64,000 bases of DNA, taken from Balanoglossus misakiensis. Taxonomy: Eukaryota; Animalia; Hemichordata. The stretch spans positions 6,437,625 to 6,501,624 of the forward strand of contig CM082579.2 of the NCBI GenBank assembly GCA_040954595.2. Reading direction: 5' to 3'. Each line of letters starts with the position of its first letter. Position 1 is the stretch's first letter. A program made the translations under genes and the position numbers. Below are positions 12,882 to 49,800 of this stretch, piece by piece. The notes under the pieces are model-generated. The model was not told where the DNA came from and ran no database searches. It worked only from the letters and a program-made list of their open reading frames with translations.

Positions 12882-12949
<68 letters not shown>

Positions 12950-13538: not shown

Positions 13539-13935
13539 ATTTACAGCTTACAACTATTCAACATTACCGTCAGTAAACTTACGTCGCCTTCATTTTCACG
13601 CATATATCGTGCATCTCTGCCGCTCACCTCATGTACTTCGTCCACGCTCGCGACATCTATCGCGACCTTTCAACCCAGATCTGCCAGATCACAATGACCT
13701 GGAACCACATATTATTCCGCGAATAATATCTTGGAAGCATCGCTTACAACTCTATTCATTACTGTTGACGTTATGTTCTGTAATATTATCTTTGCCGACT
13801 CTGGTTGCTAAAAGTCATCGGGAAGTCAGAAATGTTTAATCAAAGGGGGTTTATTTCGCCTGTGCGTAATAATACCATTTAAAGGGATGGTGGTCATTAA
13901 ACACCCGGAAGTGATTTACCGGCGAGTGTTGAAGT
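13539..13935. promoter_or_regulatory. Probable bidirectional promoter of SLC25A43 / UFSP2
   Basis: Divergent ATGs about 400 bp apart. ETS/GABP-type CCGGAAGTG at 13905-13913. Confidence 0.6.
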
Positions 13936-28404: not shown

Positions 28405-31400
28405 TCATTTCAGAGCCAGAAGTGAATGGCAACCCAGCTCAGAGCCTGACAACATGGCATCACACATCATACTATCATACCCTTGCTCTATCTGGACAGT
28501 TCTTCGATGTTCTATTGCACTGTTGGAGAAATTCTCTTGCATGATGCAAACCTCCTGCGAGTTACCAGTACTCACTGACATCGAAAGTCCGTTTTGATGG
28601 CCACCATTCGTGCCAGCTACACAGTAATCCATGGCACCGTCGCAAATCGTCCACTGGGGCGCTTTTTGACTGAACGCATCAATGCAAGCTCCTTCCATGC
28701 CACCATTTTGTGCAGCCACTGGAAGCCCATTGATGCGTGGTCCTACGAAGCAATTGGGAGAGAAATTTTAACAGGTTCACTATTTGAGCAATAAATAAAG
28801 TGAAACCTGTCTAACAGAAGGGCTGTCTTAGCATTTGAAGACCTCATTCATGGGCATTAACTTCGTCACTTCTGGGTGTGTACTGCGTATCAGATTTAGG
28901 GAGCTACACACAAAGTCCAGTTTAAAAAATGTTGACAAGACTTCCAGTGGCTGCGGGCCATTGTTATCACAACAATAAAAACACTACATCATGTGACCGC
29001 CGAGCTTTATGGGCACTGCAGTGCCCTGGCGTCCTGCTTTCAATGATGAGTTGAAGGATGGCGCTGACATATGACTGACTTGCTCTGGTGTACGTGTGGG
29101 ATGATTAGCGCTTGTCATATCTACATCATCAATTCCCCCACCTCCTGGGCCAGGGTCGCCAAGCCATATACAACAGGAATAGAAAAAGAAAAGAGTCTGT
29201 GTCAACTCCCCAGACAGAAGCTGCCGTGCGCAACTGAAACAACAAGACAGATCCCACACCACACTACAAGCCTAACACCTGTGTTTTTGTTAAGGTTGGT
29301 GAACATCGGCAAATGATTTGGGAACTGCTGTATCAAATCAGCTACCCATTAAAATAACTGCATTAGTATATCACAGGGAACCCGTATCCCACTAAAACGA
29401 CAGGGGAATCCCCTTGGTAACAATTACCTGGGTACCACCCTTAACAAAAACACAGTACACACTGACAGGACACATATAAAGCAGGGATGGTGAATATGGG
29501 TAGGGGAGGTTATGTGTATCAAAACACACAGAAGAAGTTGAAATCAAAACGCAAGTTTGGCTAAACCCTAGTAATGGTATAGGCAACCGTAAGGCGCTGT
29601 TAAATCCTCTGCAGAAGTAGCCGTTTTGTCTGTAACAGTAAATGGTGAAAAAACAGACTTCAGAGATTCCAACGCAAAAAGTTTTGACTCTTTCTTAAAA
29701 TACATGTGAAAACTGTTGATACTGAAGTTTTTGCAGCTAATAAATTACAGACTTTTCCTGACGTAAGGACGGTCTTAATATCAATTGTATCCATAAAAGA
29801 TTATTTATGTACAGTTAAAATATGATATGTTTAGTTGCAGTCTTAAAACTAAAAAGTCCCAGTATGGCCGAGACAAAATCTTGTTTCTCATCCTTGAAGA
29901 CTGTTAAAAGTTGTGCAGTGATGCACTGGAAGAAACAAACTTGTCTCCCATTTGGGAATCAAGGCATCCCTTGCGTGTTAAGTCAAAAAGTCATGCAGGG
30001 GTTAAAGGTCAGCAGAACACAACACAGCAACTTAATAATAACCATTTCCTACAAGACTACTGAGAGAGGTCGGTCGGTTGTGGGAAGATGCGAGCTGAGA
30101 AATTATCTCACCATCAGTTCTTGATTTTTTGAAGCAGGCCGTCTCCTCGTCGTCCCGTAAAGCTCTCTTTCTGCTGATGGCGTGAGGTAGTGAGTTGTTG
30201 TTGCTGATTGCGTTGCGAAATCCGTTCTGCTGCAGTGGCGCGCTTGCTTGGTGGTGGAACCCGTTCTGGTGGAACCCGTTCTGGTGGAATCCGTTGGCAG
30301 TGGCCTGGGTGACCATCAGCTGTTTGATGAAGTCCGCACACTGTTCGTTGCCGCAGGAGACAGCCAGCTGATCGGGCGTGTGTCCGTTGTGATTGGCAAC
30401 ACTGGTAAAAAAAGACGCAAATGGAGAACCAGTTACGGAAGGCAAGCAGGGCTCCACAAACTGACAACGTCTCAAAATTATCAAACATACATTCACTGAT
30501 GTTCATTACATTTTTCTAGTACATATAATTGCCAGCGTTTCAAGTGCAAAGGCTAGACTCTTGTGTTATTTGTTACTCACTTGAGCTGAGCATGATGGCA
30601 GTGAAGAAGTCCTATACACTCCACAGACCCACTCCTAGCTGCTTTATGCACTGCGGCTTCCCCTAGGTAGTCCTTGTACAAAAGTGAAGCATGAAATGAT
30701 CAGTCACATGTATGTACAAAATGAAAACAATAGATTTGGACTGTGAACCTTTGTGCTGAAAGGGGTTAAACAATAACATTGATGAATTTTTCAAACATAC
30801 CTGTCTGTTGACCTCAGCACCTGACTGTATCAGCCACTGGAGGCAGTGTGGGTGAACTCCGAACGCGGCAATGTGCAGTGGGGTCTGATTGAATCGCTTG
30901 GTGGCTATGTCAATGTTGACACCGCACGCTACCAGATTACGAAGACAATCAAGCTGTTGGATAATGTACACAAATAAATCCACATTACTGCATGTCAACT
31001 TCAAAGTTCAACGCAACCTTGTGTTTACAATTATTACAAAATGCCATATAAATATCTCTTATAATCAGCTGCTGATTAAAACTAAACAAACACCACGTCC
31101 AACAATACATGTTAACAATATAATATGAAATAATTGCTTTTTAAATAATAAAACACTCCTGATATTTACTGGTGCATGGTTTCCAGGGCTTCGTCAAAAG
31201 AGGGCGTGGTGCAAAATAGGTTTTTGAAAAAAGCGCCGACTGGAAAATTTGCATAAGAAACGTACATAGGATTGAACTACACAATGGACCATAACAAACG
31301 AAACTGACCTGTCACACAACGGGAAACGTTATCTTTGCCGAATTTCATCAAATACCTGTGACATTTGTAATAAAATAGCTTTGCGAATGATATCGACAAC

Positions 31401-31752
31401 AGCTCAGAAGCCGCCATCTTATTTCTCGGTATTCGGCGCGGAAATAGAAACTGGCTGGTCGTCAAAATATGGCCACATGCTTTCCATGCCAGTCGAGAAC
31501 AAAAAGATATTCAGCCCGGTTGAAGTGAAAACTGTCGGTTTAACCTACCTTTCCGAAATAAGCCGCCCAGTGTGCCGGGGTCCACCCGTAAAACTGGTCT
31601 TCGACGTACATTCCTGAGTGCTGGCCGTTGGCTATCAACAAAGACAGGGTTTCCGTGTCTCCATCTCGGCATGCCCGATGCACTGGATAAGAACGTCGCA
31701 GAATCGCTTCACTTTCCGACCCCCAGTAACCGAACGAGTACGAACTTTCCAT
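28405..31752 (-). CDS. ANKRD10: Ankyrin repeat domain-containing protein 10 (ANKRD10/ANKRD37 family)
   Basis: Exons 31752-31549, 30953-30801, 30672-30581, 30401-30112, 28742-28405. Motifs [75 protein letters not shown], and a bipartite NLS-like RKR…KKSRT. The last exon is less certain. Confidence 0.88.
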
Positions 31753-32506
31753 CGCAGAAATATTTACAGTGCGCCCTGAGGTTAAATTGAGGACATGGAA
31801 GGACAAGTGGTGGCACTTTCTTCGGTAAAAATTCCCCCACAAGCGCTAGGAGAAAATTCAAAACAATAACACACTACACTGCACTTCTCCGCGGAAAAAA
31901 ATCAATGCCACATCCGGGAATGTTTTCAGCAAATGCAACATCGCCCTCGCATGGTCGAAATGGGCTCAGTATGACTTCTGAAAAACACTTTTCAAAGGAA
32001 CACATTTGGGGGGGGGAGGGGATTGTCCCCGTGGTGCGTATCCTTCAGTATATTATGAATGATCACTGTCGTCGTCGTTACCTTTGGTGTTGTTCTGGTT
32101 CTTAAAATGGCAACAAAATGTTGTGTTTCAGACATAATGTTTGGATATAGATGGGAATGGTGTAACAATGCAACCATGGAAATTATATACAAGTGCTTCG
32201 TTTGTAATATACAGTGAGAACTTTCACTCGAAACACACGCTTACTACTACTAGGCGCACATTTTCTGATTCCCGTGAGAATGAAAAATATACGTACGACG
32301 TTTTTCCTTGTGACACGTCACTACTTTGTTAAACGTAACGATCATGCGGAAATTCGCCTAAATAACACGTGCATAAAAATGCTGAGATACATTATCATGA
32401 CATTACGGGAACTTTGATGATCTATTTTCATCAATTGTTTACGGTTACTTTGAAACTGCATCCAAGCACGAATGAACAATCAGTCACGCAGACTAATAGT
32501 ATTCTT

Positions 32507-32514
32507 TATATAAA
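32507..32514 (+). promoter_or_regulatory. TATA box of Cys-rich peptide gene A
   Basis: TATATAAA, followed by a non-coding exon ending at donor CAG|GTATAA (32602) and an acceptor 8 nt before the ATG. TCACGCA at 32484-32490. Confidence 0.6.
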
Positions 32515-32737
32515 CCAGATCCAATCCCACCAGCTTCGACAGAACGACTTTACATTGCACTGAGACTGAACACGGTGCCGATCGAGTTGCCAAACCAACC
32601 AGGTATAATACTAGACCTATTTTTTTCATATTTCCATATATCACCATCTGCTTAATTATAGCGTAGAGATTGGGGTTGCATGTTTTCACTTCCGCCGTAT
32701 TAACTTTCTATAATTGTGATATTTTTCAGTGTTCAAG

Positions 32738-33169
32738 ATGAAGACGACATTTCTGTTTGTAGCATTCTGCGTTGGAGTGGCAGCAGTGCAAGCTTTTGGT
32801 AAATATGATTGTTTGAATGATGAAAAATTCACTTCGTCATTGATATACAACAAAATACAAATAAAAGTACATACAATCATTTAGAAAGGCATTCCTATGT
32901 TGTCCATGCCGTTGACAAAATTTTGTCTGCGTTGAAATGCCTCACAGTGGTCGTACCCACCGTTTCCCTTCTTACTTACAGGCAATTTTAGGGACACGCC
33001 TGTTTCCGTCGTTGTTCACATGGCACCCAAAATGACCTTTCAGCAAGACTTGGTTGACGAACTGATGACTGTCGACTTCGCCAGTACAGCCGAGGTGGAC
33101 TGTTGCGACCGCGCCGCGTGTCTGGTTCGCGGGGGAAATGTTTGCGATCCGAAGTGCCCGCCATGCTGA
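32738..33169 (+). CDS. Secreted Cys-rich peptide precursor A (FGNFRDT family, 82 aa, 6 Cys in tail)
   Basis: Exons 32738-32798 + 32982-33169 (phase-1 intron): MKTTFLFVAFCVGVAAVQA-FGNFRDTPVSVVVHMAPKMTFQQDLVDELMTVDFASTAEVDCCDRAACLVRGGNVCDPKCPPC*. Absent from the ORF track; homologous to genes B-D. Confidence 0.85.
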
Positions 33170-34235
33170 GAAAGATAACAGTACGTAGGTGTCATCTTGA
33201 CAACGACTCTCATATTAACTCAACACATCTATGATTCCCTTTCGAAGAATATGTATGTGTGGTCATCTATCCAAATTCAGTCACGAAAATTACCATAACA
33301 AGTGGAGATCTTGAAACTTGCCAATATTTTTTTCACAAACTAATTCATGCAATTGTATGTCTTTCATTTCAGGAATTCAGTGGGATGAGTGATGTGCATA
33401 AGCGACTGCCAACACATCGGTTTGGAATTTTCAAGTTTCTGCTTATTTCTGTTGTCGTTTACCCACTCACCCGCAGGGGCAACTGATTATTAAAATATCA
33501 TAAACCTTATTTAAATGTGACGTGTCCTTGTCTCATCTATCTTCCTGGTTATCATCACCATTCGGATATACTTTCCCAACTGTGTGAAAGTGAAAACTTT
33601 GCAGCCGTGTTTATTGATAACGATGCCAACTTTGACATTCGCGATTGTTCAGTCGACACGTCTCTTCTTATACTGCGAGATGGTGTTCACTTTGCTTATG
33701 CTGGCAGTGACAAGCCCAAACCTGTCAAACTGCTGTTTTTCAACGACCCCTCCCCCTTACAGAGGAAGACGTCTTACATCCGACTTGCAACAAGCACACC
33801 ATCGTTCACACACCTCGACATTCAAAGCTACATTATGCCTATCGGATGAGGCAAAAAGGCCGGGTTACTGCCGCTTCGGTGATCCAGAAGTCTGGCAAAC
33901 ACGGAAATACACTGTGGTGTTACACTGTGTAAGCTTATACAAGTACGAGAATTTGTCCACTGACAGTGTAATACTTTGCACTTTTGTGCTTTTATGGGAA
34001 ATCCAAAAACACGATGTTTTCGAAAGATTTTAAAGGCATCCATAACAGAGGGCGCGCTCTACTTCGTTCAGGTACCATAATTATTCATCGACAGCATTCT
34101 CTTGAACGTGGTAAGAGTTTGGGTACAAAGCTAACTTTGGGAAAACAAAACTCTGAAACTAAGTAGACTAAGCTCATTCTATCGGGCAGTCAACTGACAT
34201 CGTCGCTGCGCATCAAAGCTACCTGAACATGATAA

Positions 34236-34565
34236 GGGGCTGGTCAGAATTAACAGGAGGGCAGGCTGTGTCTTCTGAACTGAAGTATCGTCAATGACAC
34301 TGTCTGAGACATCTCCGTTTTCAGCTAGCATCATGATATCTTCTGTGTCACTGCCAATATCGGAATCAAAATCATCATGGGTTTGTGAGCCTTTCTCTGT
34401 GACATTTCAAATATAAGAACATTTTCCGAGTCATCCTTGCACAAAAATTAGAGACCCTCCGCCAGACTCAAAATGAAGTGGCCCTCCCCCGAACCGTTGT
34501 ACGCAAAATAACGACCTTCCCCAATCGCACCAACCTTTCCCCCACTGTTAATTCTGACCAGGCCC
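34236..34565. mobile_element. PIF/Harbinger-type MITE (330 bp)
   Basis: 21-bp TIRs GGGGCTGGTCAGAATTAACAG / CTGTTAATTCTGACCAGGCCC (20/21 match), flanked on both sides by TAA (34233-34235 and 34566-34568). TAA is the canonical Harbinger target-site duplication. Confidence 0.75.
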
Positions 34566-35370
34566 TAATGGGCATCACATGCCCAAAATCAATGTAACAT
34601 AGACGGGGTTGTTTGACAGAAATCTGTGGTCGGTCCACCATTCTTTGACAAAAGTCAGAGTGGTGCTGCACGATGGCTCTTGTATCTCTCTCCTTACAAG
34701 TCAACGACATCACGTGTTTGTTCGTGGAAAATTCCTTGCACACAATACCCGTACAACCCAAACAACCACACGAATACAACTCTATATGGCAAGCAAATAA
34801 TAACCTTTATTACTCTATGTTCTTTTTGGCACGATCGCACCAAATTAAACAAAAGCAGACGGAGACGAGATGTTGCTCCACGCGTGAGTGACCAATTGTA
34901 CTGCATGGTTGGACTACAAACTTTCAGATAGGTCGTCCACGGGTGTCCATTCTGTAGGTCCGTCTCCACCTGATGGGAAAATCCAAAGAAAGTCTTGTGT
35001 GAACGATTTTAGCCGTTGTATGCCCCAGCTCACCGTCCATCCATTGACCAGAACATCACGATCATATAGCTTTTGGTTTACAGCTCTAACCAAAACTGGA
35101 AATTTCTGTTCAAAGCTCGTTCCTTTACAACGAATCTACAACGAGGACGGTGGTGCAACATGTATCGGTTGTGATACACAATTTATTCACACTGAGATGT
35201 AGGTACATTATAGTCGAGTTGCTATGGCATGCCTGCCGCTACAGAACACCCCGAAAATTAAAAGCCAAGTGTTTTTGTTTGTTTCCAGTACGTGGCTACA
35301 CATGTGCAACTGTCAGAATCCTTTTGTACAACATATCGGCGTTGTGGGATTTACCTTCAGGATGTTCCGT

Positions 35371-35849
35371 CTAACTACAGACGTCGCAATCGACAGGACA
35401 GGCGGGGCCTAAGAGAATGCAACAGGCACCTATACAACACGGACACTCGGGACTCTGCGGGGCGCCTCCTCCATTAAGAAAGACGGCAGCATCCAGAAAT
35501 TCCAGCTGCATCTGTCTATCAGGCTCCAGGTGGATCTTTATCTCCGTCTTGGTGTCGCGGAAGTTTCCTGCAGGCAGGATCAAAAATGGACTCCGTATAG
35601 TTCAAATGAGAGAATACGCGCAACTTGCTTTGTCGCATATTAGTTCATCAGCTCTAATAACGAAAGGTTCTGCTCTTTTCTGTTTCCAAGGAAACGCGAC
35701 GTATACGATGAAGTAAAACCAAGAGAAACTTCATGGGTTTATACGATGTAAATTACACTGGACAAGCCCCAAATGACTGACAATGACTTACCGAAGCACC
35801 TCACCATTACTGCCAGTCCCAACAAAAGTAATACGCACAGTGTTTTCAT
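35371..35849 (-). CDS. Secreted Cys-rich peptide precursor B (FGNFRDT family, 84 aa, 8 Cys in tail)
   Basis: Exons 35849-35792 + 35567-35371: MKTLCVLLLLGLAVMVRC-FGNFRDTKTEIKIHLEPDRQMQLEFLDAAVFLNGGGAPQSPECPCCIGACCILLGPACPVDCDVCS*. Confidence 0.87.
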
Positions 35850-36071
35850 GACTACGATCTGTCGGGGAAATGGTTTTAAAAATGACTTTGAACTGTCGTG
35901 AACGTTTACAGACGGGCGGGCAGACTGACTGGCTGATAGAGATAGAGAGAAACAATACAAATACCGAGTAATAATGCAACACATCGGGCAGAGACACGTT
36001 GACTGACAGTCAGTTGGTCTGTTGAACAGACAAATATAGGCAGGTGGATAGAGACCATTGCACAAACAGGC

Positions 36072-36139
36072 GAGAAACAGAGAGAGAGAGTGGGTGGATG
36101 AGAGAGAGAGAGACAGAGAGAGACAGTGAGAGAGACACA

Positions 36140-36189
<50 letters not shown>

Positions 36190-36220
36190 AAGACAGAGAG
36201 AGAGAGACAGAGACAGAGAA
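36072..36220. repeat. (GA/GACA)n purine-rich microsatellite in the predicted 5'-UTR intron of gene B
   Basis: Directly visible. Confidence 0.9.
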
Positions 36221-36314
36221 GTGGACTATGAGGTGAACATATATTTACCTGACCACAAGGCTTACTTTGTCTGCGGAAAGTAGACGAAGCTTACATGTCA
36301 GTTTGCGTTTGTTT

Positions 36315-36321
36315 TTTTATA
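36315..36321 (-). promoter_or_regulatory. TATA box of peptide gene B
   Basis: TATAAAA on the minus strand; non-coding exon ends at CAG|GTAAAT (36249). TCACGCA at 36332-36338. Confidence 0.6.
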
Positions 36322-37609
36322 CATTTTCCTATGCGTGAGATGCCATACCTCCTTTTTTGTTGGACGGGACTTGGTAATCGTCCCGAAACATGAAATTTAC
36401 CAAATCCTTTCATTAAATCTTTTGAATGAACAAAGATAAATGATTTTTATAGGTCTTTTTACTACGTTCCAATAACATTTCAAGAGAAGTTCCCCGAACC
36501 AAAATGTTAACGAACGGTGTTACCGATTTGTGACACGTTAATGTGTTTTACATACACCCACACTCATTTTTTACTCGTTTATTATCTTGCTAAAGCGGAA
36601 AATATATCATAAAAGCTGTGCCGTAAACGTTAAAACGTCTTTTTTCAATTACAAGTATCAGTGTGCCATTCAAGTTAAAAGCTTGATGATCTGGGTTTCA
36701 AATCATATCCAGGGCAAATAATCCTAATGAACAGTTGCCACTCTGGAGGATTTCCAGCAGAATGCTTTGTTCAGAAACTATAAACGTAAACGCTATCTTA
36801 AAACTTTGGGGCCAAGGTGACATGGCCGAAATTTATAAAAATTGCAGGGAGACATACCGATACAGCTAGTGACGAGAACAGAACAGCCAAGAACTAGCAA
36901 GTGTAACGATCGAGCCAACCCTACGTCTGATTTTTTATCAGATTGAGCTCACGTTCATGGCCCTGCCAATGGTCAGTTTAAAATCACATTTTCACCTGGC
37001 CAGGTTTTCTTTTACATTTTGTACATACAAATTGACAGACACAACGAACATATTTCACTCATCTGTTTGTGTTTTATTTATTCGTATCTCGTGTCGTTTA
37101 AGGTAATTACAATCACTGCAAAGCGGTGACAGGTGTCGTCAGGTAGAACTCACGAAATAAAAGAACCCCTCTTCGTCAGGCAATGTAGTCACACCTGTCA
37201 CAAGCTAGCCCAATTCTGAAAAAAATGACATATGTGAAGAATATGAGGTGCTAAAAAGAGAGAAGGGCAACTTTTTTATGTGACGTAGTAAAATGATTTG
37301 TGGCTCGTGTCTTGTTGCATCGGGTATTACCATTGCGGTGAATAGTCCAGCAAATGACAACAGTTCCATCTACGCAGTAACTGATGCTGTAAAGAGGCCG
37401 TGGTTTACGACGACGTAGTCGAGGCAACGACCCGCGCGAGCGGAAGATGTCAGGCGGGGTGCTATAAACTTTCAAAGAGGGTTGTACGAAACTTTGTTTG
37501 TTTGTTTGTTTGTTTGTTTGTTTCCAGTACGTGGCTATACATGTGTAACTGTCAGAATCCTTTTGTACAACATATTGGTGTTATGGGATTTACCTTTAGG
37601 ATGTTTCGT

Positions 37610-38147
37610 CTAACTACAGACGTCGCAATCGACAGGACAGAGGGGGCCTAAGAGAATGCAACAGGCACCTATACAACACGGACATTCTGGACTCCGAGCC
37701 ACCCTCGAGTCGCCTGTGCCTGTCCCCAGGAACATAATGGCGTCGACTAGATCGATCTGCATGTCTCTATCTGGCTCCAGGTGGATAGTTATTGTCGTTG
37801 GAGTGTCGCGAAAGTCCCCTACAGGTGCGAAATGCATATACCATGTATCAATTAACCCACGGCACGGACAAATCTGGTGATGCGTTGGGTAGACTTTTGA
37901 TTCTTTTGATGCCACTTTGAAGAAAACTTATTTCACATGTGATTGCGCCTAGACTTTCGAAACCGGCCGGGCCACAGACAAAGTCTGTGGCCGGGCTTAC
38001 GTGGAAAACTTTTGATGGTTATGCACTTACAACTCTAAGTAATTGTACTTCATACACATTTATAATAATACATTTGAAGTACTCACCAAAACATTTAACT
38101 GACACCACCGCCGCAGCCAAGAGAGTCAAGTACCACAAACTTCTCAT
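37610..38147 (-). CDS. Secreted Cys-rich peptide precursor C (FGDFRDT family, 89 aa, 8 Cys in tail)
   Basis: Exons 38147-38087 + 37818-37610: MRSLWYLTLLAAAVVSVKC-FGDFRDTPTTITIHLEPDRDMQIDLVDAIMFLGTGTGDSRVARSPECPCCIGACCILLGPLCPVDCDVCS*. Confidence 0.87.
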
Positions 38148-38665
38148 CGTTAAAATATTTGTGATCTGCTGTGAACCGTCTGTTCACATGTCGGCGTTGA
38201 GGGGAAAAAAGAACGGGACGCGAAATCAGCTGTTATGCAGAATACTGAGAGATACAAAAAGGCGCACACATTGCAGAGGTGCACGTGGAGGGGACCACGA
38301 ACAGAGAGGGGCGATACAAATGACGAGGTGTGAGGGGGGGGGGCATTGGGAGGAGAATAAGGGTGCTAGTGTAAGAACGATACATGAAACCCCCAATTTG
38401 AGTTGCATCTTCCGCGGAGGAATGACAGGTGTGCTGAAAAGGCAATGAACAGAGCATGCAGGAGACGCACAGGTGATCGAGTAGTGCACACACCAGGCAT
38501 TCGCAGACGATCGACGACAGATGGAAACGACAAGGGGAGGGGGGGGGGGTTCCTAAGCGATGGATGGACGAACAGACAGCACCATGGCCAGTTGACTTAC
38601 CGAACACTCGATTTGAGGAACTTCACCAGCAGAAAGTTGATGAATGTCCAGCTCCACTGGTCGTC

Positions 38666-38672
38666 TTTTATA
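38666..38672 (-). promoter_or_regulatory. TATA box of peptide gene C
   Basis: TATAAAA on the minus strand; non-coding exon ends at TCG|GTAAGT (38601). TCACGTGAC at 38683-38691. Confidence 0.6.
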
Positions 38673-39192
38673 TGCATTTCAAGTCACGTGAAAAATCCCT
38701 CCTCTTGTTTTTTTTTTTCTTTTTTTTTCGAGGAATATTCGGTCTAATGAATCAACAATACTGACAAATTCAGCGCTGGTTGATATGTAAGGGTTTTGCG
38801 TGACACCATAACTCAAAGTTGACGGTGACACCTCAATTTTTTTCGCGACGACTGGGTTCAAATTTAATTGAAATCATGCAGGATATTATTTGAGTAACAA
38901 ACAAAGCCTACCAGAGAAATCGATTTTTACAAAAAAAAAAGAAAAGAAAAATTCAAGACTGAGATCTGATAACTGTTCATATGCAAAAATAAAAGTTTTG
39001 GCTTCGAGACAAGTGAGTCTCTCGAACACCTCTCCTATTCTATGAGACAAATATTACGTGATTGAATTTGAGAGAAATCAGTCGTTTTGGAACTCATATA
39101 GTACTTTTTCTGGTCATGAATTTAATATTTGTGCAATTTTCAGATATTCATAGCGACAAGATTAACCTCAAATTCTCAAAATACATGTATGT

Positions 39193-39245
39193 GTTTGTTT
39201 GTTTGTTTGTTTGTTTGTTTGTTTGTTTGTTTGTTTGTTTGTTTT
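39193..39245. repeat. (GTTT)n microsatellite
   Basis: Directly visible; a shorter copy lies at about 37493-37523. Confidence 0.9.
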
Positions 39246-41059
39246 TATCTTCCATACGTCGCGTAAGAAACATTCCTCCCTGATCCTGATTGTGGCGGAG
39301 TTGGAATTTTATTATAATAGTTCTTTTAACGTTTTATAAGAACAAACTGAAAGAGGAAATCCATCCCCGATCAACCATTTGTTTCTGCTGTTCACAGAGA
39401 ATCTGGTCTGGCGCATGCGCATCATGTGACGATAGAGGCGCTTTAATAACCGGCCGACTTCAACGTTCCCATGACCGACATCCGCAACTTTATCATCACG
39501 TGACTTCGGGTTGCAAAACTCGGTTTACGAGCTTACTGAAGTCATAACGGGCACCAGAAACACATATAACACACCAACCCTTGTTGCCACAATAAAGAGA
39601 ACAATTTATTGCGATAGCATGCAAGGTTTTCGATAGGCATGAATCACACGCGTCATCAAATTTATTTTATGCAGCATTTACATGCGAGTGCGCCAACTTC
39701 CCCAACCAAACTATTATTCGTTCCATTATGCGTAATAATTATGTATGCGCTTGTACCAGGGGGAAAAAGTAAAATGCCAAGTCATGCGATTTCAATGATG
39801 GTAGTACGTATGGGCGTTGCAATTTTCCTGACGAAAGAATAGTTCAACGCTTCGAAATTATCAAGACTCCACTTATATATGATGCGTTATAGCACGGTCA
39901 CTCGGTGGTGACCGTGGTAACAGTGATCAAGTCAATAGAAGGATTTGAAATCAACCCTGCACTTCATTTCATTTGAATGACAGAAAATCTGCAGTTCGAT
40001 CTTCCATTTGCGTTGCCCTTTATTTATTTTCAATCAGTGCGTCAAAACTCTTATTTTTATTCATAAATGTTTCAACCATTTTGAATAATGACTGAAACCG
40101 TGGGCTGGTGTTTTCGTGGAAATCCTTTTATGGGAATTTGAATAGTCACGTTTTATGCTCTTTGAAAATACAGTTAACACATGGCTGTGGATAACTAAAC
40201 TGTATATCATTTTATCAGTAGGTCAGCATTAACCCTTCTAAAATATAAAATGTGAGAAATCGCAATCTGGAGAGAAATAATGGCCCTTCAAACCATTGTG
40301 AGGGTATTTTCAAAACAGTTTTGAATTAAACTGATATTCAGAGATAACTTTAACATAATACGACCGCAACATTGCTCATACCTGCAGCGCAGGCCACTGC
40401 AAACTGCATGGTCTCAGATTCCTGCAAATTTCGATATATTTCCGAACTGTAAGGGCATTGATCTGTTATGTGGCTTACACCTGTGTCAAAAGGCATATTT
40501 CGGTGACGTGCAAAATAAGGTGATTTCTTTGTGTGTGTCCTTAAAGACAGAGGTGACCAGTGCTATTGTCTTGGAGCAAGCACCTGCAGTAAGACAGAGA
40601 GTGTTTTGTTCTCTCGTCAAGAAATGTTGCCCCTTTAATTCCAGTAACTCGTCTGATTAAGGTACCACAGCACAGGGAAGAAGCGATCCTACACGAATAC
40701 ACATTCAAAGCATCGCCACTGGGCATCATTTGAAGCCACGTCGTGTAGAATGAACCGAGGTTCTTTTTTTCATTCTTTCTGACAGTGCTGGTGAGGCAGG
40801 CGTCACGTGATCACACCAACTAAGTGGCGTTACTAATTTCATGAATAGCTGTCGACATTCTAGCTGGACAATAACTGGATCTCAGCCGTCATATCTAACG
40901 CCGAACAGTTTTTTCATCAATTCCTGCTTCGAATCAAAAATGACTATATAATCTGGGTTCATAGCAACCGCATTACTTTACTTGTGTCGGTGAATGTATA
41001 CCAGTCCGTTTCCTTAGCCTTTTCTATGCTAACAATTTAAAAGATCATTTGCGTAAATA

Positions 41060-41257
41060 CAGTCAAAATTGTCTATAGCGGCGAGTCGAGGGACTTTCCT
41101 AAACCGTACTTTATAGACAGGTGGTCTTTATGGACATGCCAATTAATGTGCATGTAAATTACATAGGGACTGTGTCGAAGTAGCCTCTATGATAGACAAG
41201 CATAGAGAGTGAGTGCTCTGCTGTCTATGATACAAGTATTGAACACACGTTTAACTG
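41060..41257. mobile_element. Degenerate Tc1/mariner-pogo-type MITE
   Basis: TA|CAGTCAAA…TTTAACTG|TA: TA flanks and short imperfect CAGT-starting TIRs, with internal repeated TATAGACA-like motifs. Confidence 0.4.
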
Positions 41258-41740
41258 TAGGTCATAATGATGTGGTGCATGGGAGAGACGCCCAACTAAT
41301 TATGATAAATGATCAACCAGAGAGAGAGAGAGACAGAGAGACAGAGAGCGTAATATTTCGTTAACATATTTCTACGTCATTTATTAAAAGGTTGTTTTCA
41401 TGATGTTACAGACAAAAAATACGATGTCACGAAAACACAAGAACGTAAACGGCGCTTCGTACGTTTCTCTCCATGGAACACAGTGACTCCTGCGGATCAA
41501 GACAGAAAGAGAAGCTACGTTAGAGATGTATACGAATGCCACAGAAGCATTCAGGGGGTGTGGGGACACAAATTATATTATACCAGTATATTGATGGTGT
41601 AAATCACGCTATTTGATTGGTCGAGACACGACACGTGACCGTGATATATTAGCCATATACCACAGTCATATATCATAGTTAAAGAAAATGCCTTTTTAAA
41701 ATGTTTTATGCAAAGTTTCAATATACTGGCATAATATAAT

Positions 41741-41883
41741 AGCAATAAAACACCCCCAGCCATGGTATACCACTCGATTTTGACCAGTTCAACTCCATAT
41801 ACGCACTCGCTATCGCTCGTGCGTATATGTCGTGAACTGGTCAAAATCTCGTGATATACCATGGCTGGGGGTGTTTTATTGCT
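41741..41883. repeat. Long imperfect palindrome (hairpin), probably the terminus of a non-autonomous DNA element
   Basis: 29-bp perfect outer arms AGCAATAAAACACCCCCAGCCATGGTATA, then 16-bp and 10-bp paired segments separated by small internal loops. Confidence 0.85.
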
Positions 41884-42048
41884 TAAATACACGATAATAT
41901 AACAAGAAATTGAAAATTCATGGAACAGTCCAGTGAAAAATCCGAATGGGCATCGGAAGAAGCAGGAGGTCTGGGTGACCGAGACTATAGGCCCATGGGG
42001 TAGATAACGCAAAACGAATGCTAACCAGAAGTAAATAGCCCATTTACC

Positions 42049-42466
42049 TTAGGCTGCGGCATGGCATTCACCGCAAATTTCTGGCCCAAGAATCATGCAA
42101 CAGTAGCGGTCATCGCACGGGCAAGCGTGCTCTCCCGGCCCTGCTCCGCCGAATTCGATACTGAACAGGCCATTCAGCAACTTCTTCTCAACAGTCGGGC
42201 TCGGCTTCAAATCGATGGACAGAACGACAGGGGTGTCGCGGAAATTACCTACCAAAAGAAACAAGTGTTTAGGACATTTATAACACCAGACCTCAGGTAA
42301 AATTACGCTTTACAGCCAGAACGAGTGCGAGCACAAACAGACGACAAGAGAACATTGTCGATGTCGAGTGACCGTCCGAGGATTCCTCTATCGGCGTCTA
42401 CTCACCGAAACTTTCAACCGTCACGATAACGGCGCAGCAAACAACAAGAATCCACAGAGTTCTCAT
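42049..42466 (-). CDS. Secreted Cys-rich peptide precursor D (FGNFRDT family, 86 aa, 6 Cys in tail)
   Basis: Exons 42466-42406 + 42248-42049: MRTLWILVVCCAVIVTVES-FGNFRDTPVVLSIDLKPSPTVEKKLLNGLFSIEFGGAGPGEHACPCDDRYCCMILGPEICGECHAAA*. Confidence 0.86.
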
Positions 42467-42657
42467 GGCTGCGTGTAGAGAAGAAAATGAATGAGTCGAG
42501 AGTAATAGGTGAAACGGCAGAAAATACGGGAGAATTATACAACTTGCGGAAACGTCAGGTGGAAGAGACCAATGTAGTCAGATTGGTAGAAAGTCTGAGA
42601 TAGAGCGAGAGGTAGAGACTAGGAACGAGAGAGAGGGGGGGGGGAGGGGGGAGATGG

Positions 42658-42697
<40 letters not shown>

Positions 42698-42774
42698 GAG
42701 ATGTACCGATTTGTTCCTCAGTGTTTCGGCTTCCAAATCCTAAGTCGATACTGATCCAGTCTCTCTCGTCTTCA

Positions 42775-42781
42775 TTTTATA
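42775..42781 (-). promoter_or_regulatory. TATA box of peptide gene D
   Basis: TATAAAA on the minus strand; non-coding exon ends at TCG|GTACAT (42707). CACGCA at 42793-42798. Confidence 0.55.
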
Positions 42782-45700
42782 AGATCAAATAGTGCGTGTC
42801 ACATTTCATTTCGCGGTATGATATCGCCCTAAATGATGACGACATGATCTCATTTTCAAACTCATTTGATTTGATGTGCATGGTGTTTATCAGATTGTCG
42901 TGTCGTTTTTTATTACTTGTGTTTTAATGTGCACGTTTACTCCTCCTTTAACTATCTTGTCAATTTTAACGTCGTGGAAAAGATGACGTGGGATTTATTT
43001 AAACGAAAGATTTTTTTTCAGATTTACGACTGGGTTTACATCTCATGCGTAAAATGAAGAGGAAATTGGGGCAAAATGTAGATCATATCTGTGTACTGTT
43101 ATTATCGTTTTTTTTTCAGCGTTCGCATTTAGCCAAAGTGGTTCCGTCTGTCCGTCGGACAGGGCAGTAGCGAGAATCACATACCAAGCGTTCACAAGAA
43201 AGACGGGGATTTCAAACTGATTCAAGAACACCGAGTATAGTAAAAACCGCCCGTACAAGTTCAGCACTCGAAATACTAGTAATACTCGAAAGCATTTTTC
43301 TCTTTCTTGCTTTTTTCTCTTATCGATCTGATATTGCGACACGTGTTCATAACTTTGCAGTAATCTGGCGACTGTATTTTACATGGTGTTGTATTTTATT
43401 TTTGGTTTCTGGTGATTTGGATGAACTGGCCATGCGTGTGGCTTGAAGTCTTTGGTCATAACATTTCCATAAATTATTACAACGAAATGGCCCCTTTTTA
43501 ATTGAAAGTATTGTTTTATAGCCGTTTTTACATATGGCCTACATCAGCAATTTTCCGACTGATTGATAAATCCGTTGATGCAAATAAAACACTGGTGTCG
43601 AGTGTCAACTTTACCCTACAACTGGAAACGAAATATAGGTGCATGGCGCTGTTTATTAATAGTTGCTACCCACGACCACCTTCTCCTTGTTTTCACGGAC
43701 AGTAATGATGAATAAAGACACCCTTTTCTGTATTCTACGAACACGCGTAGAAACCCATTTCCCGGAGAGTGTTACAACCTGGGCCAATAACAGCATAAGC
43801 CCTGCGTCAACAGAACCATCCACCATCAACAAATTGTAGATGATACGCTAATTCCGAAAGATGGCTGATCCATGCATGTCGTGTCGTATCACTTGATGAA
43901 TTTTGCTGCCTCGATTGTCTTCTGGTAATTCCAGCTATCTTGATGATGCTAGTACTTTTCTGGTCGCATCAACGAATTGGTAATACGATAGCGCCCTCTG
44001 CCGGACCTCAATTGGTTTCTTTTCAGTTCCAAAATCCACAGTATGGTGCTGTGTGCCACAAGTTGCCCAAAAGTCATGAACGACGCCCTCTAGGCAGGCT
44101 GATGACTTTGCTACGTTACCACTGTTGTGAAAATGTAGTATTTAAAATAGCACAGTAAATTAAAATAAAGGGAGAGGGTCGTCTGAACTGCACATGTGCA
44201 ACTTTTCTGTTAATATAAGCACACCATCAGCATTGTTCCCACTGTTCAATGAGACCACAGACCCTCTGCTATAGAGTGACTGTGGTGGTGAGACCTTGCC
44301 AACTATGTGTTATTTCTATCAAAGTATCTTTGTTAAAAAGATACAATAAACTTGCAATGGCACCAACACCACCAGTTGTATGAGGAATCTTAGATGTCTG
44401 TCAGATACATGGTTATTGTCTGAATAAAGACCATAGTAAAATCAACGTTTCATTTGACACTGTGGTACAGGTGCTCCTGAAGGAAAACACCATGATTTGC
44501 AGATGGAGTTAACTGAGGCATTAAAGAAACAGACAAGGTGAATTCTTTCACAGATTGTTTGTTGTGAGCCCTCATCTAATAGATCAGCCATCACTTGACA
44601 GTCTGGGCTGCTAGCAGTATGGGGCGCCCTCAACACGTGATCTATAGGCCTTTGTTTTTCCACCAAACTGTCATCAATGTTGTACTGTATGATAACATTA
44701 GTGGCTACGGCCAAATTAATAAAGGCCACCTTCGTGAACCCTGTGTGACCTTGTATCCTGGAATTTTCTAGATCAATTCCAGTCAATTCCACTGCTCCAG
44801 GATTTCCCAGGGAATGGTTACAAATTCCAGGAGTTACGAGGAAACACACACAAACAAATAAACTCCCGATACATGCGGACAGCACACACAATAAACAAAG
44901 CAATTCTATCCAAAATTCATACTTTACTTCTTTCCTTATATAACATATCTTGATGTATATACATTACTGTATTTTTAAAAAAAAAAGAGTAAATATAGCT
45001 TTGTGGGAGTACAAATAAACCACTGTTTTTCGTTTTTGTTTTTACACAGTACGACAGGCAATGTTGGTCACTCTGGTTTATACAGTGTTTTCTGCAAAAG
45101 TATACGGTAAGAACAACGACAAATGCACTTGTTTTTGCCGACACGTCTGTTGCTACCAGACAAAAAAATTAAGACAGCAGTCTTACTTTTCTCAGCCCTC
45201 GACAGCAGTCACAGTTTAACTTTTTGAAGAAAAAAAAAACAAGAAACACTGAGTATTTTTTTACTCAAACATTACAAATTACTTCTGAAAGTTCATGGGG
45301 GGAAAAATATCCATAAAATAAATATTGTATTTAGAGTAGAAAATAAATATGTTATTATTATTATTAATAATAATAATTTTTTTTAATTCTTTGGTTTATA
45401 TGTTAGCATCACCCGACCAGGGCCAGCATCGGGAGCACTTGCATTATATACTGTTCCTATATACATCTACACGCTACCCCTACTGAAACTGTATTAAGCG
45501 AGAAAATAATATTTGAAAATGGTTGGCAAGATGCGAATCCAACACTCCTGCCACATGCACGGGACAGCAAAAGGAGAAACAAGAAAAGAAAGAAAACATT
45601 TCCATTCCAGAATGGTCCGTTTACATCCATGATGGATGGGAATAAAAACCCTGTCGGAGGGTCGGTTACCAGAGAGATTAGATGTCAGTTTAGCAAGAGT

Positions 45701-46830
45701 TATTCAGCAGTACACCACACCACAACCACCACCACCACCGCAACCTTCACCACAGAAACAACCAACGTTAGAATTGTCAGTCTTGTCAGTGTGTTTATAA
45801 CCCCCTTCCATCTAAGTACGCTCCAACACCGACCCATGGCCTGTGAAGACAGCCAAACCTGATTGTCTATGTCCTTGAAAAATAAAAACTGAAACTCTAA
45901 AAACTGCCCATGTTGCGTTCCACGAGTAAAATGCAACAGTCGGTCCTTCAAGCAGTTCCATTCCTCTCACGTCTTAAATAAAAAACACAATCCCTGATAT
46001 GTAACATAAAATAAATATAAATACGCATAACTGAATGATTTATGAATGAATGCTGTCTGAAGCTATTCTGGCAGAGATTCTAAAAAAAAGTTTCTAAAAT
46101 CATGCGAACTGCCTGCCCTGCCCACAAAAAGCAGGGGCAAGCGTTATTCTTGTTACTGGCGGGGGGCAAAGGTCAGCTCTGTAACTTAGTAGGGCAGTGG
46201 CAAATATTACTTGTCACTGAAGGCATGGCCCCAAACTCGATACTCACTAATTACAAAGTACGTATTCTAGGTACAAAAATAGCAAAGATGTCCACTTAAA
46301 AAATTGTACATCTCCTGTTCCACCACTGTCTTTGGATGTAGCGTAGAACAGGTCACAAACGTCACCCTTTGTTCATGTGTTTGTTACATTAAGAACAGCA
46401 CGTCCGATTGGCTCATTCACGCCTCATTTGGAAGCTAAAGCCAATGATCAACCAGCTTTTACGCCGGTGCTTCTCTAATGCACGTCGATGGGTAGAGACA
46501 CTCGCTTCAATGAAGAAACTTTGTAAATAAACGACTGAGAATTTGGCTACACTGTTTTTGTTTAGCGTTCTGTTGATTTTGTTGGGATTGCGTCGTACTG
46601 GCCTCCCCGCCAATCTCAGAATCCTGTGCGGTCATAGTTCATAGGTCAGAGTTCCTAGATCCTCCCCACATAGGCACTTCTTAGTGTTCAGTGATCATTT
46701 TGCTGCTTCCGTGGCAGTTTCCTTTCCTCACACAGAGAAGAAAAAATAACCGACACGTTTTGTAGTGAACAGCAAATAGCTCCACCATTGCTGCGACCAT
46801 CTGCAAGGGTAGAGAGGCATTCCCCAACGC

Positions 46831-49800
46831 CTACACTTTGGTTTCAGGTCCGTCTGTGGTGGAATGCTTGAAGGAGTCTCGAAGCCGGCCGATCATGTTA
46901 GCCGACATCTGACCGAAGGCTTTGTTATACCATTCAACACTGCGGCCACTGCAAAATCAAAGGGAAAAGAATGAATAACCATTCAGTCATGACAATCAAA
47001 ACAAAATTGACAACCATAATGAGAGCATATTATTTTTTCGTAATTCCGAAAAAAAGGATTCTACTATGATCATTTCAATCACGGGAGTCTGCAAATTTGA
47101 TGTCAGCATTGTTTTTCTATCACGTAATCACCGTGCTACACTTCATACTGGTAGAGAGAGTTTAAGACAAACGTGAAACAACCTGCAAGGCGTGTCTTAC
47201 CGTGAGTCAATGCGACAGATGTACGTCAGTCGGGATTTCCCAGCACCGCACGGTTCGATCAGGTAGCGCGACGCCAACACCGTTCCCCGGACCCCGCCGA
47301 CCAACTCCGCGTCGGGGTGGTCCACCGAGGTCGAGACGAGGACGCACGCTCCTCGGGGCAGGTCGGCCTTCCACTTCCGCACCACGCAGTAGTCTCGGCT
47401 GGGATGCGGCGCCATGGAGTTCCGCACGTACTGGAACACTTCCGTCTCGTGGTCCAATTTCTCCACCACCCTCCACTTGGCATAGTCCTCATCCCACGAA
47501 TGCCTGCCAAAACCAAAACGACACCAAATGGGTAAGTTACATGGGTAAGTATACTCTACTCATTAGGTTTTAAGCAAAACTCTCTTTCCTTCCATAGCTT
47601 ACAGGCTAGCATTTGGCTGATCTATTGAGAGTACACTAATTATTGCAGACAGGAAATCCCCCTGATGCTCTTATCATCTTTTTCACACACGTTTAACATC
47701 CATCCCAAACACGTGACTCATTATTTCTCTAATGACACTGCTCTCAACTGGCTAAACCTAAGCTAATGACCAGTTCCTCACGGGGGCCGACACGTGGACC
47801 TCCGTCCCCCTCTTTGCCTGAAAACCCCATGTCCCTCCACACTATCACGACAGCAAATTTGAGGCAGCTCACCTATCACGAAGAAGCCTGTTAAGCAGCT
47901 CTGTGGGGGGCGCCTCGACTTCAGCTGAACATTTCCACAGTCTCAGCGGATGGCCATCGCCGATCTTTTTGTAGGCCAGTTCTGTTCCTTCTTCTGAGGG
48001 ACAAGAGACCCAACCTTTGAATTTCTCGCGTGCTTCCTACAACGGAAAAAAAAAGGTGGGGGGTAAAAAATGAATACCTTTGCAGATCGCTTGGGAAGTT
48101 CGATAATGTATAATGAGTATTCGCAGATGAATTAAGAATGCCACTGTACCAGGATAGGCTTCTCGTATCAGAATACAGATTTCAACCATTCTTGTTATAA
48201 ACTGAACATCCTGGTAACACCAGTCAGTTGCGTCGCGCAAAGAATTTCAAAACTAATGAGCTAAATATAACAGAAATCGTAATTTACAAACGGATAAAAG
48301 AAAACACCCCACGTCTGTTAATTTTTTTTTGTCCCCCCGGAAACGAATTAACGGTACTTACTTTGAGAACACCTTGGATGCACTCGTCAAGATACGTTTG
48401 ATATCCGGGACTTTCCTCACTGGAACTGCGGCCGAGCTCGTTCAGAGCCACCGGTTCGCCCAATTCCATGTAGGAGAAATGGCACTTCATCATGGTATCT
48501 TCCGGAATCTGTGATGGAATATCAACACGTCATTAGACAAAACAAAAACTTCACGCCACACTTAGTATCCAAAACCTAAAAAACAGTTGAAATTTCTATT
48601 CTTCTGGAATTTTTAAAAATCCTTGGTTGGTTCCCATGGAAACAAAACACATGCATAAACTTGCATGTAATGGACACTACAAGAATACATTCACATGGCT
48701 GCATGTTATTTTTGCACGAAGTCCAGAGCAACTGTTGTAAAAAAAAGTCATATACAGGTACAGGCAGAGGTCTACTCACCACAAACAGTTTCTTGACTTC
48801 TCTGACCATCAGGGCCAGGCACTCATGGGCGGCGATGTTGTCGCTCAGTTCCTTCTGATCCGGTTTGCCCAACTGGGCCCTCCGGCGCCTCTGCGGACTG
48901 GTTCCGGAACGCGGGCCGCTCATGTGGAACAGGGATGGAGCGAAGCACACGGCTAGATTATGGGCAGTCATCTGTCGGGGAACGGGGGAAAGAAAGGCCT
49001 TGTTTAACGCCGATGTTCAGTGTAGATCATTTTTAAGATTCGGTATATGGACTGTGAGAGAAATATAGTGATGTCTCATGGCATGCATAGATTTCGCACA
49101 CATACGCACGTGCAAACACACATCCATACTGAACTTCCTAACAAAAAAATTGCAGTGTGCAGAATTTAAAGATAAGGGTATACAATATGTAGTACTAAGT
49201 CACACAACCACATCCCATGCCCCTGGGGCCACTCATCTTCCCAGAATGCATAAGAAACTACGTTTTCACACTCTTTGTTTTTTGTGTCTTTGACATTTCA
49301 GTGGAGCTTTAAAATAAATAAATTTATGTTTTTGAGATTTTTGAAAAAGACGTCTGTCCCTGGGTGTTTATGATATGAGGTGTAAAAACAGTGGTTAATG
49401 ACGTCGTACAATTCTTGATGCCACCGTGTCATTTGTTGCCATAACAATGGCAGAGAAACATACACACAAAATGATCCTGTGAGACTAATTTAGTCATAGC
49501 AGCTGGCACCACATAAGCCGGGGAGACACGTTTTGTAGGGGCGAAAGCCATTTATCCAAATGTTAAAAGCCATGTGGTATAAACAATTTAAAGATCTGAT
49601 GTGTGGAAAAATGACATTTCGCCGAAAAAGGTTAATAACATACGGGGGTTATTGAAAAACAAAATGTCGCCACTTCTTCACGCAAGTTTGGCGGTTTGTC
49701 ATTTAGAAATGCGTCAACAATAATAGTCCTACGTCACAAAATTGTGACATTTCTCAATATTACTTATTCACCCGTTTTACACCTCTACAAATGGATGCCA

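Follow-up and report, generated by a model that had tools for sequence, protein, structure and literature searches.

A cluster of four paralogous genes encoding secreted-type cysteine-rich miniproteins in the acorn worm Balanoglossus misakiensis

Gene structures and genomic setting

The window, a 64,000-nucleotide stretch of the Balanoglossus misakiensis genome, contains four paralogous genes, A to D. When GT-AG introns with a donor within the first 100 nt were enumerated, exactly one per gene opened a frame with FG[ND]FRDT, yielding products of 82 (A), 84 (B), 89 (C) and 86 aa (D). The earlier note had placed four paralogues of 82–89 aa here, each with a phase-1 intron splitting the same Gly codon; all four reading frames were located, and in 4/4 the unique intron split the Gly codon of FG(N/D)FRDT in phase 1.

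32738..32798, + strand: gene A coding exon 1 (signal-type peptide, Phe, first base of the Gly codon)
32799..32981, + strand: gene A phase-1 GT-AG intron, from intron enumeration
32982..33169, + strand: gene A coding exon 2 (leader, linker, 6-Cys tail at 33101-33166, stop)
35792..35849, − strand: gene B coding exon 1 (signal-type peptide)
35568..35791, − strand: gene B phase-1 intron, from intron enumeration
35371..35567, − strand: gene B coding exon 2 (leader, linker, 8-Cys tail at 35445-35374, stop)
38087..38147, − strand: gene C coding exon 1 (signal-type peptide)
37819..38086, − strand: gene C phase-1 intron, from intron enumeration
37610..37818, − strand: gene C coding exon 2 (leader, linker, 8-Cys tail at 37684-37613, stop)
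42406..42466, − strand: gene D coding exon 1 (signal-type peptide)
42249..42405, − strand: gene D phase-1 intron, from intron enumeration
42049..42248, − strand: gene D coding exon 2 (leader, linker, 6-Cys tail at 42123-42052, stop)

Across all six frames of the window, G[ND]FRDT occurred four times, whereas 100 shuffles gave a mean of 0.0. A profile built from the four members detected no further copy there (next match E 0.32).

Consensus sites suggest that all four genes likely share a layout of four exons led by a TATA box. A donor lay 1–16 nt 3′ of the stop codon in every gene (against 0.14 expected per 25-nt bin from background, hence 3.9e-4 for all four), and a TATA box 72–96 nt upstream of a donor, likewise in 4/4. 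The 5′ acceptors did not exceed the background rate, which was 0.447 per bin for the lowest score.

32507..32737, + strand: gene A putative TATA (32507), 5′UTR exon end (32602) and intron (32603-32729), by consensus sites only
33170..33494, + strand: gene A putative 3′UTR with donor 33185 (or 33181), acceptor 33372 and ATTAAA 33489
35850..36321, − strand: gene B putative TATA (36321), 5′UTR exon, donor 36248, acceptor 35859
35354, − strand: gene B post-stop donor
38148..38672, − strand: gene C putative TATA (38672), 5′UTR exon, donor 38600, weak acceptor 38169
37593, 37251 and 37082, − strand: gene C 3′ donor, likely acceptor and AATAAA
42467..42781, − strand: gene D putative TATA (42781), 5′UTR exon, weak donor 42704, acceptor 42469
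42047, 41490 and 41385, − strand: gene D 3′ donor, likely acceptor and AATAAA

The cluster was indeed found between two other genes, which we take to be ANKRD10-like on the left and STARD13/DLC1-like on the right. The closest match for a neighbouring gene was in Ptychodera flava (89%), which points to a likely ptychoderid host. One open reading frame in the cluster region gave a sub-cutoff ceramidase match (E 0.01).

30035..31752, − strand: ankyrin-repeat gene, start codon at 31752, head-to-head with gene A
46830..57768, − strand: RhoGAP-START gene, ends approximate

Precursor modules, selection and the shared B/C tail

Each precursor starts with a hydrophobic segment of 18–19 aa before FG (best 9-mer Kyte-Doolittle 2.8–3.6), with V at –3 and A, C, C and S at –1 of the predicted cleavage site, residue criteria that bear out the signal-type segment described before; cleavage after the Gly is a possible alternative in 4/4. 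FG(N/D)FRDT stands directly at the predicted site with 6/7 positions invariant, and is followed by a hydrophobic stretch of alternating beta-branched residues, a Pro and a predicted helix. The helix had been called amphipathic; the prediction of a helix stood, but its amphipathicity was not above that of shuffles in any of the four (p 0.13–0.56). Monomer models of B and A were of low confidence (pLDDT 63 and 54; pTM 0.29 and 0.18), and in neither was a beta strand after the motif or packing of leader and tail seen. Leader and linker together span 41–46 aa up to the first tail Cys, the length-variable linker consisting of Gly, Ser and Ala with a basic residue in C only. The leader is Cys-free (in 4/4 the first 34 exon 2 residues include none), and the tails of 22–24 aa carry 6, 8, 8 and 6 Cys in A, B, C and D, all even and within the range that had been given; those of B and C are very hydrophobic (GRAVY about 1.5, 8 Cys per 24 aa).

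Net tail charges were +1, –2, –2 and –3 (A to D). The whole chains of 63–70 aa left after predicted signal removal were acidic (–4 to –7; pI 4.1–4.8) and none was net positive; because of this charge, membrane-lytic antimicrobial action is disfavoured, in line with the doubt already expressed about a cationic antimicrobial role. As had also been noted, a conserved dibasic convertase site was absent: the sole dibasic pair in the four precursors was a KK in the D helix, none lay near any tail, and KR or RR did not occur. Comparison of the four precursors revealed no common cleavage motif ahead of the tails; convertase signals and a C-terminal Gly for amidation were likewise missing.

Leader pS was 0.71–1.01 against pN of 0.22–0.46 in all six pairs. 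Since synonymous sites in the leaders are saturated while pN stays in this range, we regard the four genes as old and selected; on these values the leaders are under purifying selection. The invariant Gly and Pro used four different codons across the four genes. Coding GC3 was 0.56–0.59, and 0.53–0.63 in three of four flanking exons tested (0.79 in the fourth). The flank-like GC3, the pS/pN values, the varied Gly and Pro codons, the post-stop donors and the TATA-donor spacing together argue that the genes are real and selected.

The signal peptides were the least conserved part (2–6 identities of 16–17). In the five pairs other than B/C, tails were identical at 5–8/14 and leaders at 11–15/32 positions; the tails were thus no more variable than the leaders, and B and C had tails identical at 23/24 residues against 21/32 in the leaders. 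The toxin-like layout of conserved leader and variable core claimed in the earlier note is therefore unsupported in that form and only partly right. Defence peptides often show diversifying selection; here the tails gave no sign of it, as pN stayed lower than pS in the five pairs apart from B/C, a test limited by saturation.

B and C share a 187-nt tract, 93% identical, that begins within the linker.

35269..35455, − strand: B copy of the tract (tail, stop, downstream donor, about 85 nt of likely intron)
37508..37694, − strand: C copy of the tract

Synonymous differences between B and C amounted to about 15/21 in the leader and 0/16 in the tail (Fisher p 6e-6), and the two introns were unalignable (27/100 shuffles scored as high). 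The shared tail likely reflects recent gene conversion. We rejected an allelic or assembly duplication because of the unalignable introns and the leader pS of 0.74.

The ungapped register of the A and D tails scored 43 and the next shift 10, and it replaced the MAFFT register. In it, relative to the 8-Cys frame, D lacks C3 and C8 and A lacks C1 and C4. This paired loss predicts disulfides C3–C8 and C1–C4 in a tail likely locked by three to four disulfides, an 8-Cys framework that is apparently new.

Comparison with known families

None of the four precursors matched a Pfam profile. A HMMER search of 1.84 billion representative proteins gave a single match, P0121, an oxymonad repeat protein of 1302 aa. 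It was rejected because it has no Cys tail and owes its score to six weak stretches, added together, that resemble the leader. No relative was found by HMMER in other ambulacrarian proteomes. A sequence search of the PDB gave none either, its match to subtilosin A (E 0.77) being at chance level. The ESM Atlas held nothing usable for C, and the matches of A (0.78 and 0.76) were unrelated. A word-based protein search returned four candidates, none at E ≤ 1, and among longer proteins 1334 candidates, again none. Of 179 pattern matches in metagenome proteins none was confirmed, and 42 loci from a metagenome DNA pattern with a spacer three bases too short, which also missed the four genes in a window control, scored E ≥ 1 against the family profile and carry no information. 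A fold search with the B model (pLDDT 63, too low for an empty result to carry weight), tblastn of C against phages and an Rfam scan of positions 31800-47000 were empty. Literature searches outside subscription journals and supplements showed no hemichordate family of this kind, and four of the family's motifs returned no paper. The description of an unrecognised secreted-type Cys-rich family thus survives searches of Pfam, PDB, the ESM Atlas and 1.84 billion proteins. That a selected family is absent from the searched proteomes suggests that annotation misses it.

We compared the genes with CRP-I of Mytilus (MgCRP-I) as described in PMC4558851 and PMC10138031. One CRP-I feature was also seen in the gene structures here, but it is widespread among genes for secreted peptides and carries little weight. 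The CRP-I signal is conserved, unlike the signals here. Its pro-region has about 15 aa and ends in KR/RR, whereas leader and linker here contain neither pair in 4/4 and span 41–46 aa; a further coding intron, in phase 2, precedes its cleavage site, whereas the single coding intron here leaves leader and tail in one exon. The CRP-I core is a cationic, hypervariable knottin, in contrast to acidic chains with a tail homogenised between two paralogues. Tail D has the order of the array C(X3-6)C(X1-7)CC(X3-4)C(X3-5)C but a spacing of 1-4-0-7-2; A, B and C differ.

Alpha4/7-conotoxins of the A superfamily share the order of signal, pro-region and Cys tail and the single coding intron (PMC3862624 and PMC5923399). 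Their CCX4CX7C spacing (PMC5923399) lies inside tail A only (1/4), followed by two more Cys; it was spotted post hoc and arose in 227/100000 shuffles. In those sources, signals are conserved within a superfamily, against 2–6/16–17 identities among the four here, and the intron falls within the pro-region rather than at residue +2 after the signal. The host is not a cone snail, and a sequence match is absent. The paired loss would point to a partner for the second Cys of tail A outside the C1–C3, C2–C4 pattern of these conotoxins, which block nAChRs.

Insulin-related peptides (octinsulin, IGF, dilp7) have two Cys in the B chain; the helix region here is Cys-free. Ambulacrarian octinsulins are similarly secreted, multi-copy in hemichordates and built with 6–8 Cys in the order helix, linker, CC, but KR sites are absent here, CC-x3-C-x8-C occurs in no tail, and the phase-1 intron that they have in the C domain contrasts with a sole coding intron at the signal boundary (PMC8286064). 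Pfam (0/4) and PDB gave no match of the four precursors to this group. On the features compared, the genes do not belong to the CRP-I, alpha-conotoxin or insulin-like families. In proguanylin-type precursors, which lack a dibasic site, a conserved N-terminal prosegment helps the Cys-rich peptide at the C-terminus to fold and form its disulfides. They provide a working analogy, unlike the present genes in Cys number and spacing and without a PDB sequence match.

Candidate roles

We tentatively favor a reading, possible though short of probable, in which the four old paralogues encode secreted two-module miniproteins that work outside the cell as effectors of defence, in mucus or at the body surface. 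Cleavage by signal peptidase would leave FG(N/D)FRDT at the N-terminus, and the motif, hydrophobic stretch, Pro and helix would likely stay attached on secretion and bind one conserved host partner in folding, storage or presentation. The disulfide-locked tail, borne on the Gly/Ser/Ala linker, would contact the target and be swappable between paralogues as a unit. Leader retention is favored because no dibasic site lies near the tails, only C has a basic linker residue and six of the seven motif positions, directly at the predicted cleavage site, are invariant; a non-convertase protease could cut the linker instead. Modularity is supported by the synonymous contrast between B/C tail and leader, the unalignable introns and the start of the tract in the linker. 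A defensive role is plausible by analogy and from secretory context: the hemichordate epidermis is highly secretory (PMC13554239), and mussel CRP-I has been proposed to target eukaryotic parasites rather than microbes (PMC10138031).

The same separation of leader, flexible linker and Cys core, with an acidic Cys-free leader and a B/C tail that moved as a unit, would also suit a prepropeptide in which a dedicated protease or modifying enzyme reads FG(N/D)FRDT and the helix, and cutting of the linker frees a toxin-like or RiPP-like tail of 22–24 aa. The alpha4/7-type spacing of tail A adds to this, yet the tails lack a common preceding cleavage motif, the signals are unconserved, unlike those of conotoxin and CRP-I precursors, and no maturation enzyme was found among the 2 plus 11 open reading frames scanned in the cluster region; we consider it rather unlikely. 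Animal modifying enzymes need not be linked to precursor genes. We give a slim chance to an extension of this idea, a leader-and-cassette system in which FG(N/D)FRDT and the helix would dock a maturation enzyme of acorn worms not described so far, and linker recombination would swap disulfide cores between leaders.

Ciliates and sea hares use acidic Cys-rich peptides as waterborne pheromones. Old paralogues under purifying selection whose predicted mature N-terminus carries an invariant motif are what an endogenous hormone, pheromone or gamete cue might look like, with free FG(N/D)F as receptor message and the tail as address or stabiliser. Hormones are usually conserved across phyla, however, whereas the other ambulacrarian proteomes searched held no relative, and insulin-like features, convertase signals and amidation signals were lacking, making such a role improbable. 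Tails might alternatively form cross-links in mucus, in the lining of the burrow or in the egg coat, or else bind metals, with the leader driving assembly. The hydrophobic, Cys-dense B and C tails and the beta-branched alternation fit this, but Cys lost in pairs favor intramolecular disulfides over cross-links or metal clusters, repeats and odd Cys are absent and the monomer models lack a strand; we think it quite improbable. Finally, the genes might be a highly derived insulin-like, CRP-I/knottin or conotoxin-like member beyond search reach: the predicted leader helix bears a loose resemblance to the insulin/IGF B-chain helix, D has the C-C-CC-C-C order, and several octinsulin genes with 8 Cys are present in hemichordates (PMC8286064). 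With Pfam and PDB matches absent and the defining Cys, intron and cleavage features lacking, this is very improbable.

If true, the leader-and-cassette system would amount to a RiPP-like or conotoxin-convergent hemichordate arsenal with a new disulfide framework and one core of alpha4/7-type spacing. Orphan Cys-rich peptide families are frequent in marine invertebrates, which tempers the significance of the present one, and the role given to the four genes is a prediction. The tails are short and synthesisable, the predicted disulfide pattern is testable, and one tail on two old leaders, in B and C, is a natural experiment that separates the roles of the modules.

Four paralogous genes and their surroundings

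Four genes lie where an earlier note had placed them, each encoding a signal-type peptide, a leader running from FG(N/D)FRDT through a Pro into a predicted helix, a Gly/Ser/Ala linker and a Cys-rich tail:

32738-33169, forward strand: gene A, spliced product of 82 aa
35849-35371, reverse strand: gene B, 84 aa
38147-37610, reverse strand: gene C, 89 aa
42466-42049, reverse strand: gene D, 86 aa

As the note had also said, one phase-1 GT-AG intron per gene splits the Gly of FG(N/D)FRDT (4/4). G[ND]FRDT occurred 4 times in the window compared to 0.0 in 100 shuffles, and a profile built from the four paralogues found no fifth copy there. Every product begins with a hydrophobic N-terminus of 18-19 residues in which position -3 is V and position -1 is small; an alternative possible cleavage site follows Gly in all four. 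A splice-donor-like site lies 1-16 nt 3' of each stop codon (4/4); at the weakest score, the background under the weight table used was 0.14 per 25-nt bin, giving 3.9e-4 for four. Candidate acceptors and poly(A) signals lie downstream of these donors, and a TATA box lies 72-96 nt ahead of an upstream donor in all four genes. Acceptors 5' of the ATG showed no excess over background (0.447 per bin); the upstream donor of D is weak, and the downstream acceptor of B is ambiguous. These sequence signals suggest a four-exon layout of 5'UTR, signal, leader plus tail, and 3'UTR.

The cluster sits between an ankyrin-repeat gene, which we take to be ANKRD10, and a RhoGAP-START gene, presumably STARD13/DLC1. 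ORF inspection gave a series of conserved genes at 4194-26000, including SLC25A43 (exon 12852-13547) and genes we take to be 2OG-Fe(II) oxygenase, iduronate-2-sulfatase-like, UFSP-like and UBE2A-like. The SLC25A43 exon shares 89% identity with Ptychodera flava, 79% with Glandiceps talaboti and ~62% with echinoderms, and the DNA is therefore likely that of a ptychoderid acorn worm, though not of the P. flava already sequenced. At 335-2222 (reverse strand) lies an ARM-like gene whose 380-aa exon gave only weak Pfam matches; we assume that its C-terminal segment resembles a TIR domain, and it is possibly an innate-immune gene. Smaller features lie among the four genes:

33280-33300, reverse strand: C-Y-G-N-F-R-D then a stop, without intron or signal peptide, within gene A's likely 3'UTR intron
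33487-34033, forward strand: overlapping 120- and 170-aa open frames directly 3' of gene A, no Pfam match
34232-34569: between A and B, a pair of 30-nt inverted repeats separated by 278 nt, possibly a transposon relic
34179-34406, reverse strand: acidic 75-aa ORF overlapping these repeats, no Pfam match
41572-41883: a nested set of inverted repeats, of 51 nt (94%) and 23 nt (96%), within the likely 3'UTR intron of gene D, resembling a foldback or MITE

The CYGNFRD stretch is either chance or a processed-copy relic; the expectation for G[ND]FRD outside the four genes was 0.01 per shuffle.

Age of the paralogues and the tail shared by B and C

Over the first 32 codons from FG, all 6/6 paralogue pairs showed pS of 0.71-1.01 and pN of 0.22-0.46. 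Invariant residues differ in codon (Gly and Pro each use 4 codons across the 4 genes), 5/6 intron pairs showed no excess likeness over shuffles (the exception, A/C, at 1 of 100), and coding GC3 was 0.56-0.59. Judged by these patterns, the genes are old, protein-constrained paralogues, and chance ORFs are ruled out. No diversifying selection was detected in the family. Conservation is highest in the post-signal motif, not in the signal, which is an unusual trait.

The leaders of B and C are identical at 21/32 residues (pS 0.74), whereas their tails are identical at 23/24, with 0 synonymous differences of 15.7 (leader-tail contrast, Fisher p 6e-6), and the 100 nt beyond the tails match at 91/100. 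The shared tract of 187 nt begins in the linker and extends beyond the downstream donor into the likely intron, an extent for which protein-level selection cannot account. This tract likely reflects recent gene conversion or partial duplication. One tail on two old leaders is a further unusual trait of the family.

Cysteine framework and predicted structure

The tail of B has the pattern C1-x-C2C3-x3-C4C5-x6-C6-x3-C7-x2-C8. For the tails of A and D, the ungapped register scored 43 compared to 10 for MAFFT's register; it gave the top score for B/D (32) too and, by a narrow margin, for A/B (25 vs 22). In this register all tails retain C2, C5, C6 and C7, D is missing C3 and C8, and A is missing C1 and C4. 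This paired loss, comprising two events, implies predicted intramolecular disulfides C3-C8 and C1-C4.

AlphaFold2 with the four-sequence input gave models of low confidence (pLDDT 63 for B, 54 for A), with two helices in exon 2 (residues 17-31 and 46-55 in B; 17-29 and 43-49 in A) and no strand in either. The amphipathic segment proposed earlier did not hold up, as amphipathicity of the leader helix was not significant. Fold searches with the B model, whose pLDDT is too low to be informative, returned 0 matches.

Relatives and possible role

That the family was unrecognised, as the earlier note had it, was borne out in Pfam (0/4 products matched), PDB sequences, the ESM Atlas, metagenome contigs, phages, word searches across 5.8 billion proteins and HMMER over 1.84 billion representatives, none of which yielded a relative. 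Subtilosin A among PDB sequences (E 0.77) was at chance level, and the single HMMER match was a spurious repeat protein. Leave-one-out profiles, taken from an alignment built from all four paralogues, recovered every paralogue (6/6 tests, E <=2.6e-5 at the 1.84-billion library size); an annotated relative as far away as A is from D should therefore have shown up. Since proteins of both P. flava and G. talaboti are part of the parent collection, either the family is narrow or its copies in these two species lack annotation; the saturated pS makes the latter plausible. Four family motifs gave no literature match, and supplements (hemichordate marker tables, peptide spreadsheets) could hold relatives; the accessible portions of PMC4729200 and PMC13311285 contain nothing about such peptides.

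A derived member of a known family is highly improbable. Going by the available parts of PMC4558851 and PMC10138031, the family is comparable to taxon-restricted families of Cys-rich precursors such as mussel CRP-I, but genes A-D lack their defining features. The alpha4/7-conotoxin spacing CCX4CX7C (from the accessible text of PMC5923399) is present in tail A but in only 1/4 tails; it was noticed post hoc and arose in 227 of 100000 shuffles. Conotoxin precursors, as far as the open part of PMC3862624 describes them, differ from genes A-D in signal conservation and intron position, and the B-chain Cys, C-domain intron and KR sites of insulin-like peptides (PMC8286064, in part) are absent here.

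We tentatively read the family members as secreted two-module effectors, at somewhat less than even confidence. FG(N/D)FRDT would become the new N-terminus, and the leader would likely be retained, binding a conserved host partner, because no cleavage site is shared across the four precursors. That same absence counts against a leader that is recognised by an enzyme and cleaved off, a reading we regard as unlikely though worth weighing. An endogenous or waterborne signal, close to the pheromone or gamete-signal layout proposed earlier, appears less likely again, and a structural or metal-binding secretion is quite doubtful. In the effector reading, the disulfide tail would likely be the exchangeable, target-facing part, and the site of action would be the mucus-covered body surface; the hemichordate epidermis is described as strongly secretory in the available part of PMC13554239. 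The acidic charge of the peptides and the undetected diversifying selection count against effectors. Marine invertebrates commonly have orphan Cys-rich families; the peptide family found here is real, apparently undescribed and of a familiar kind.
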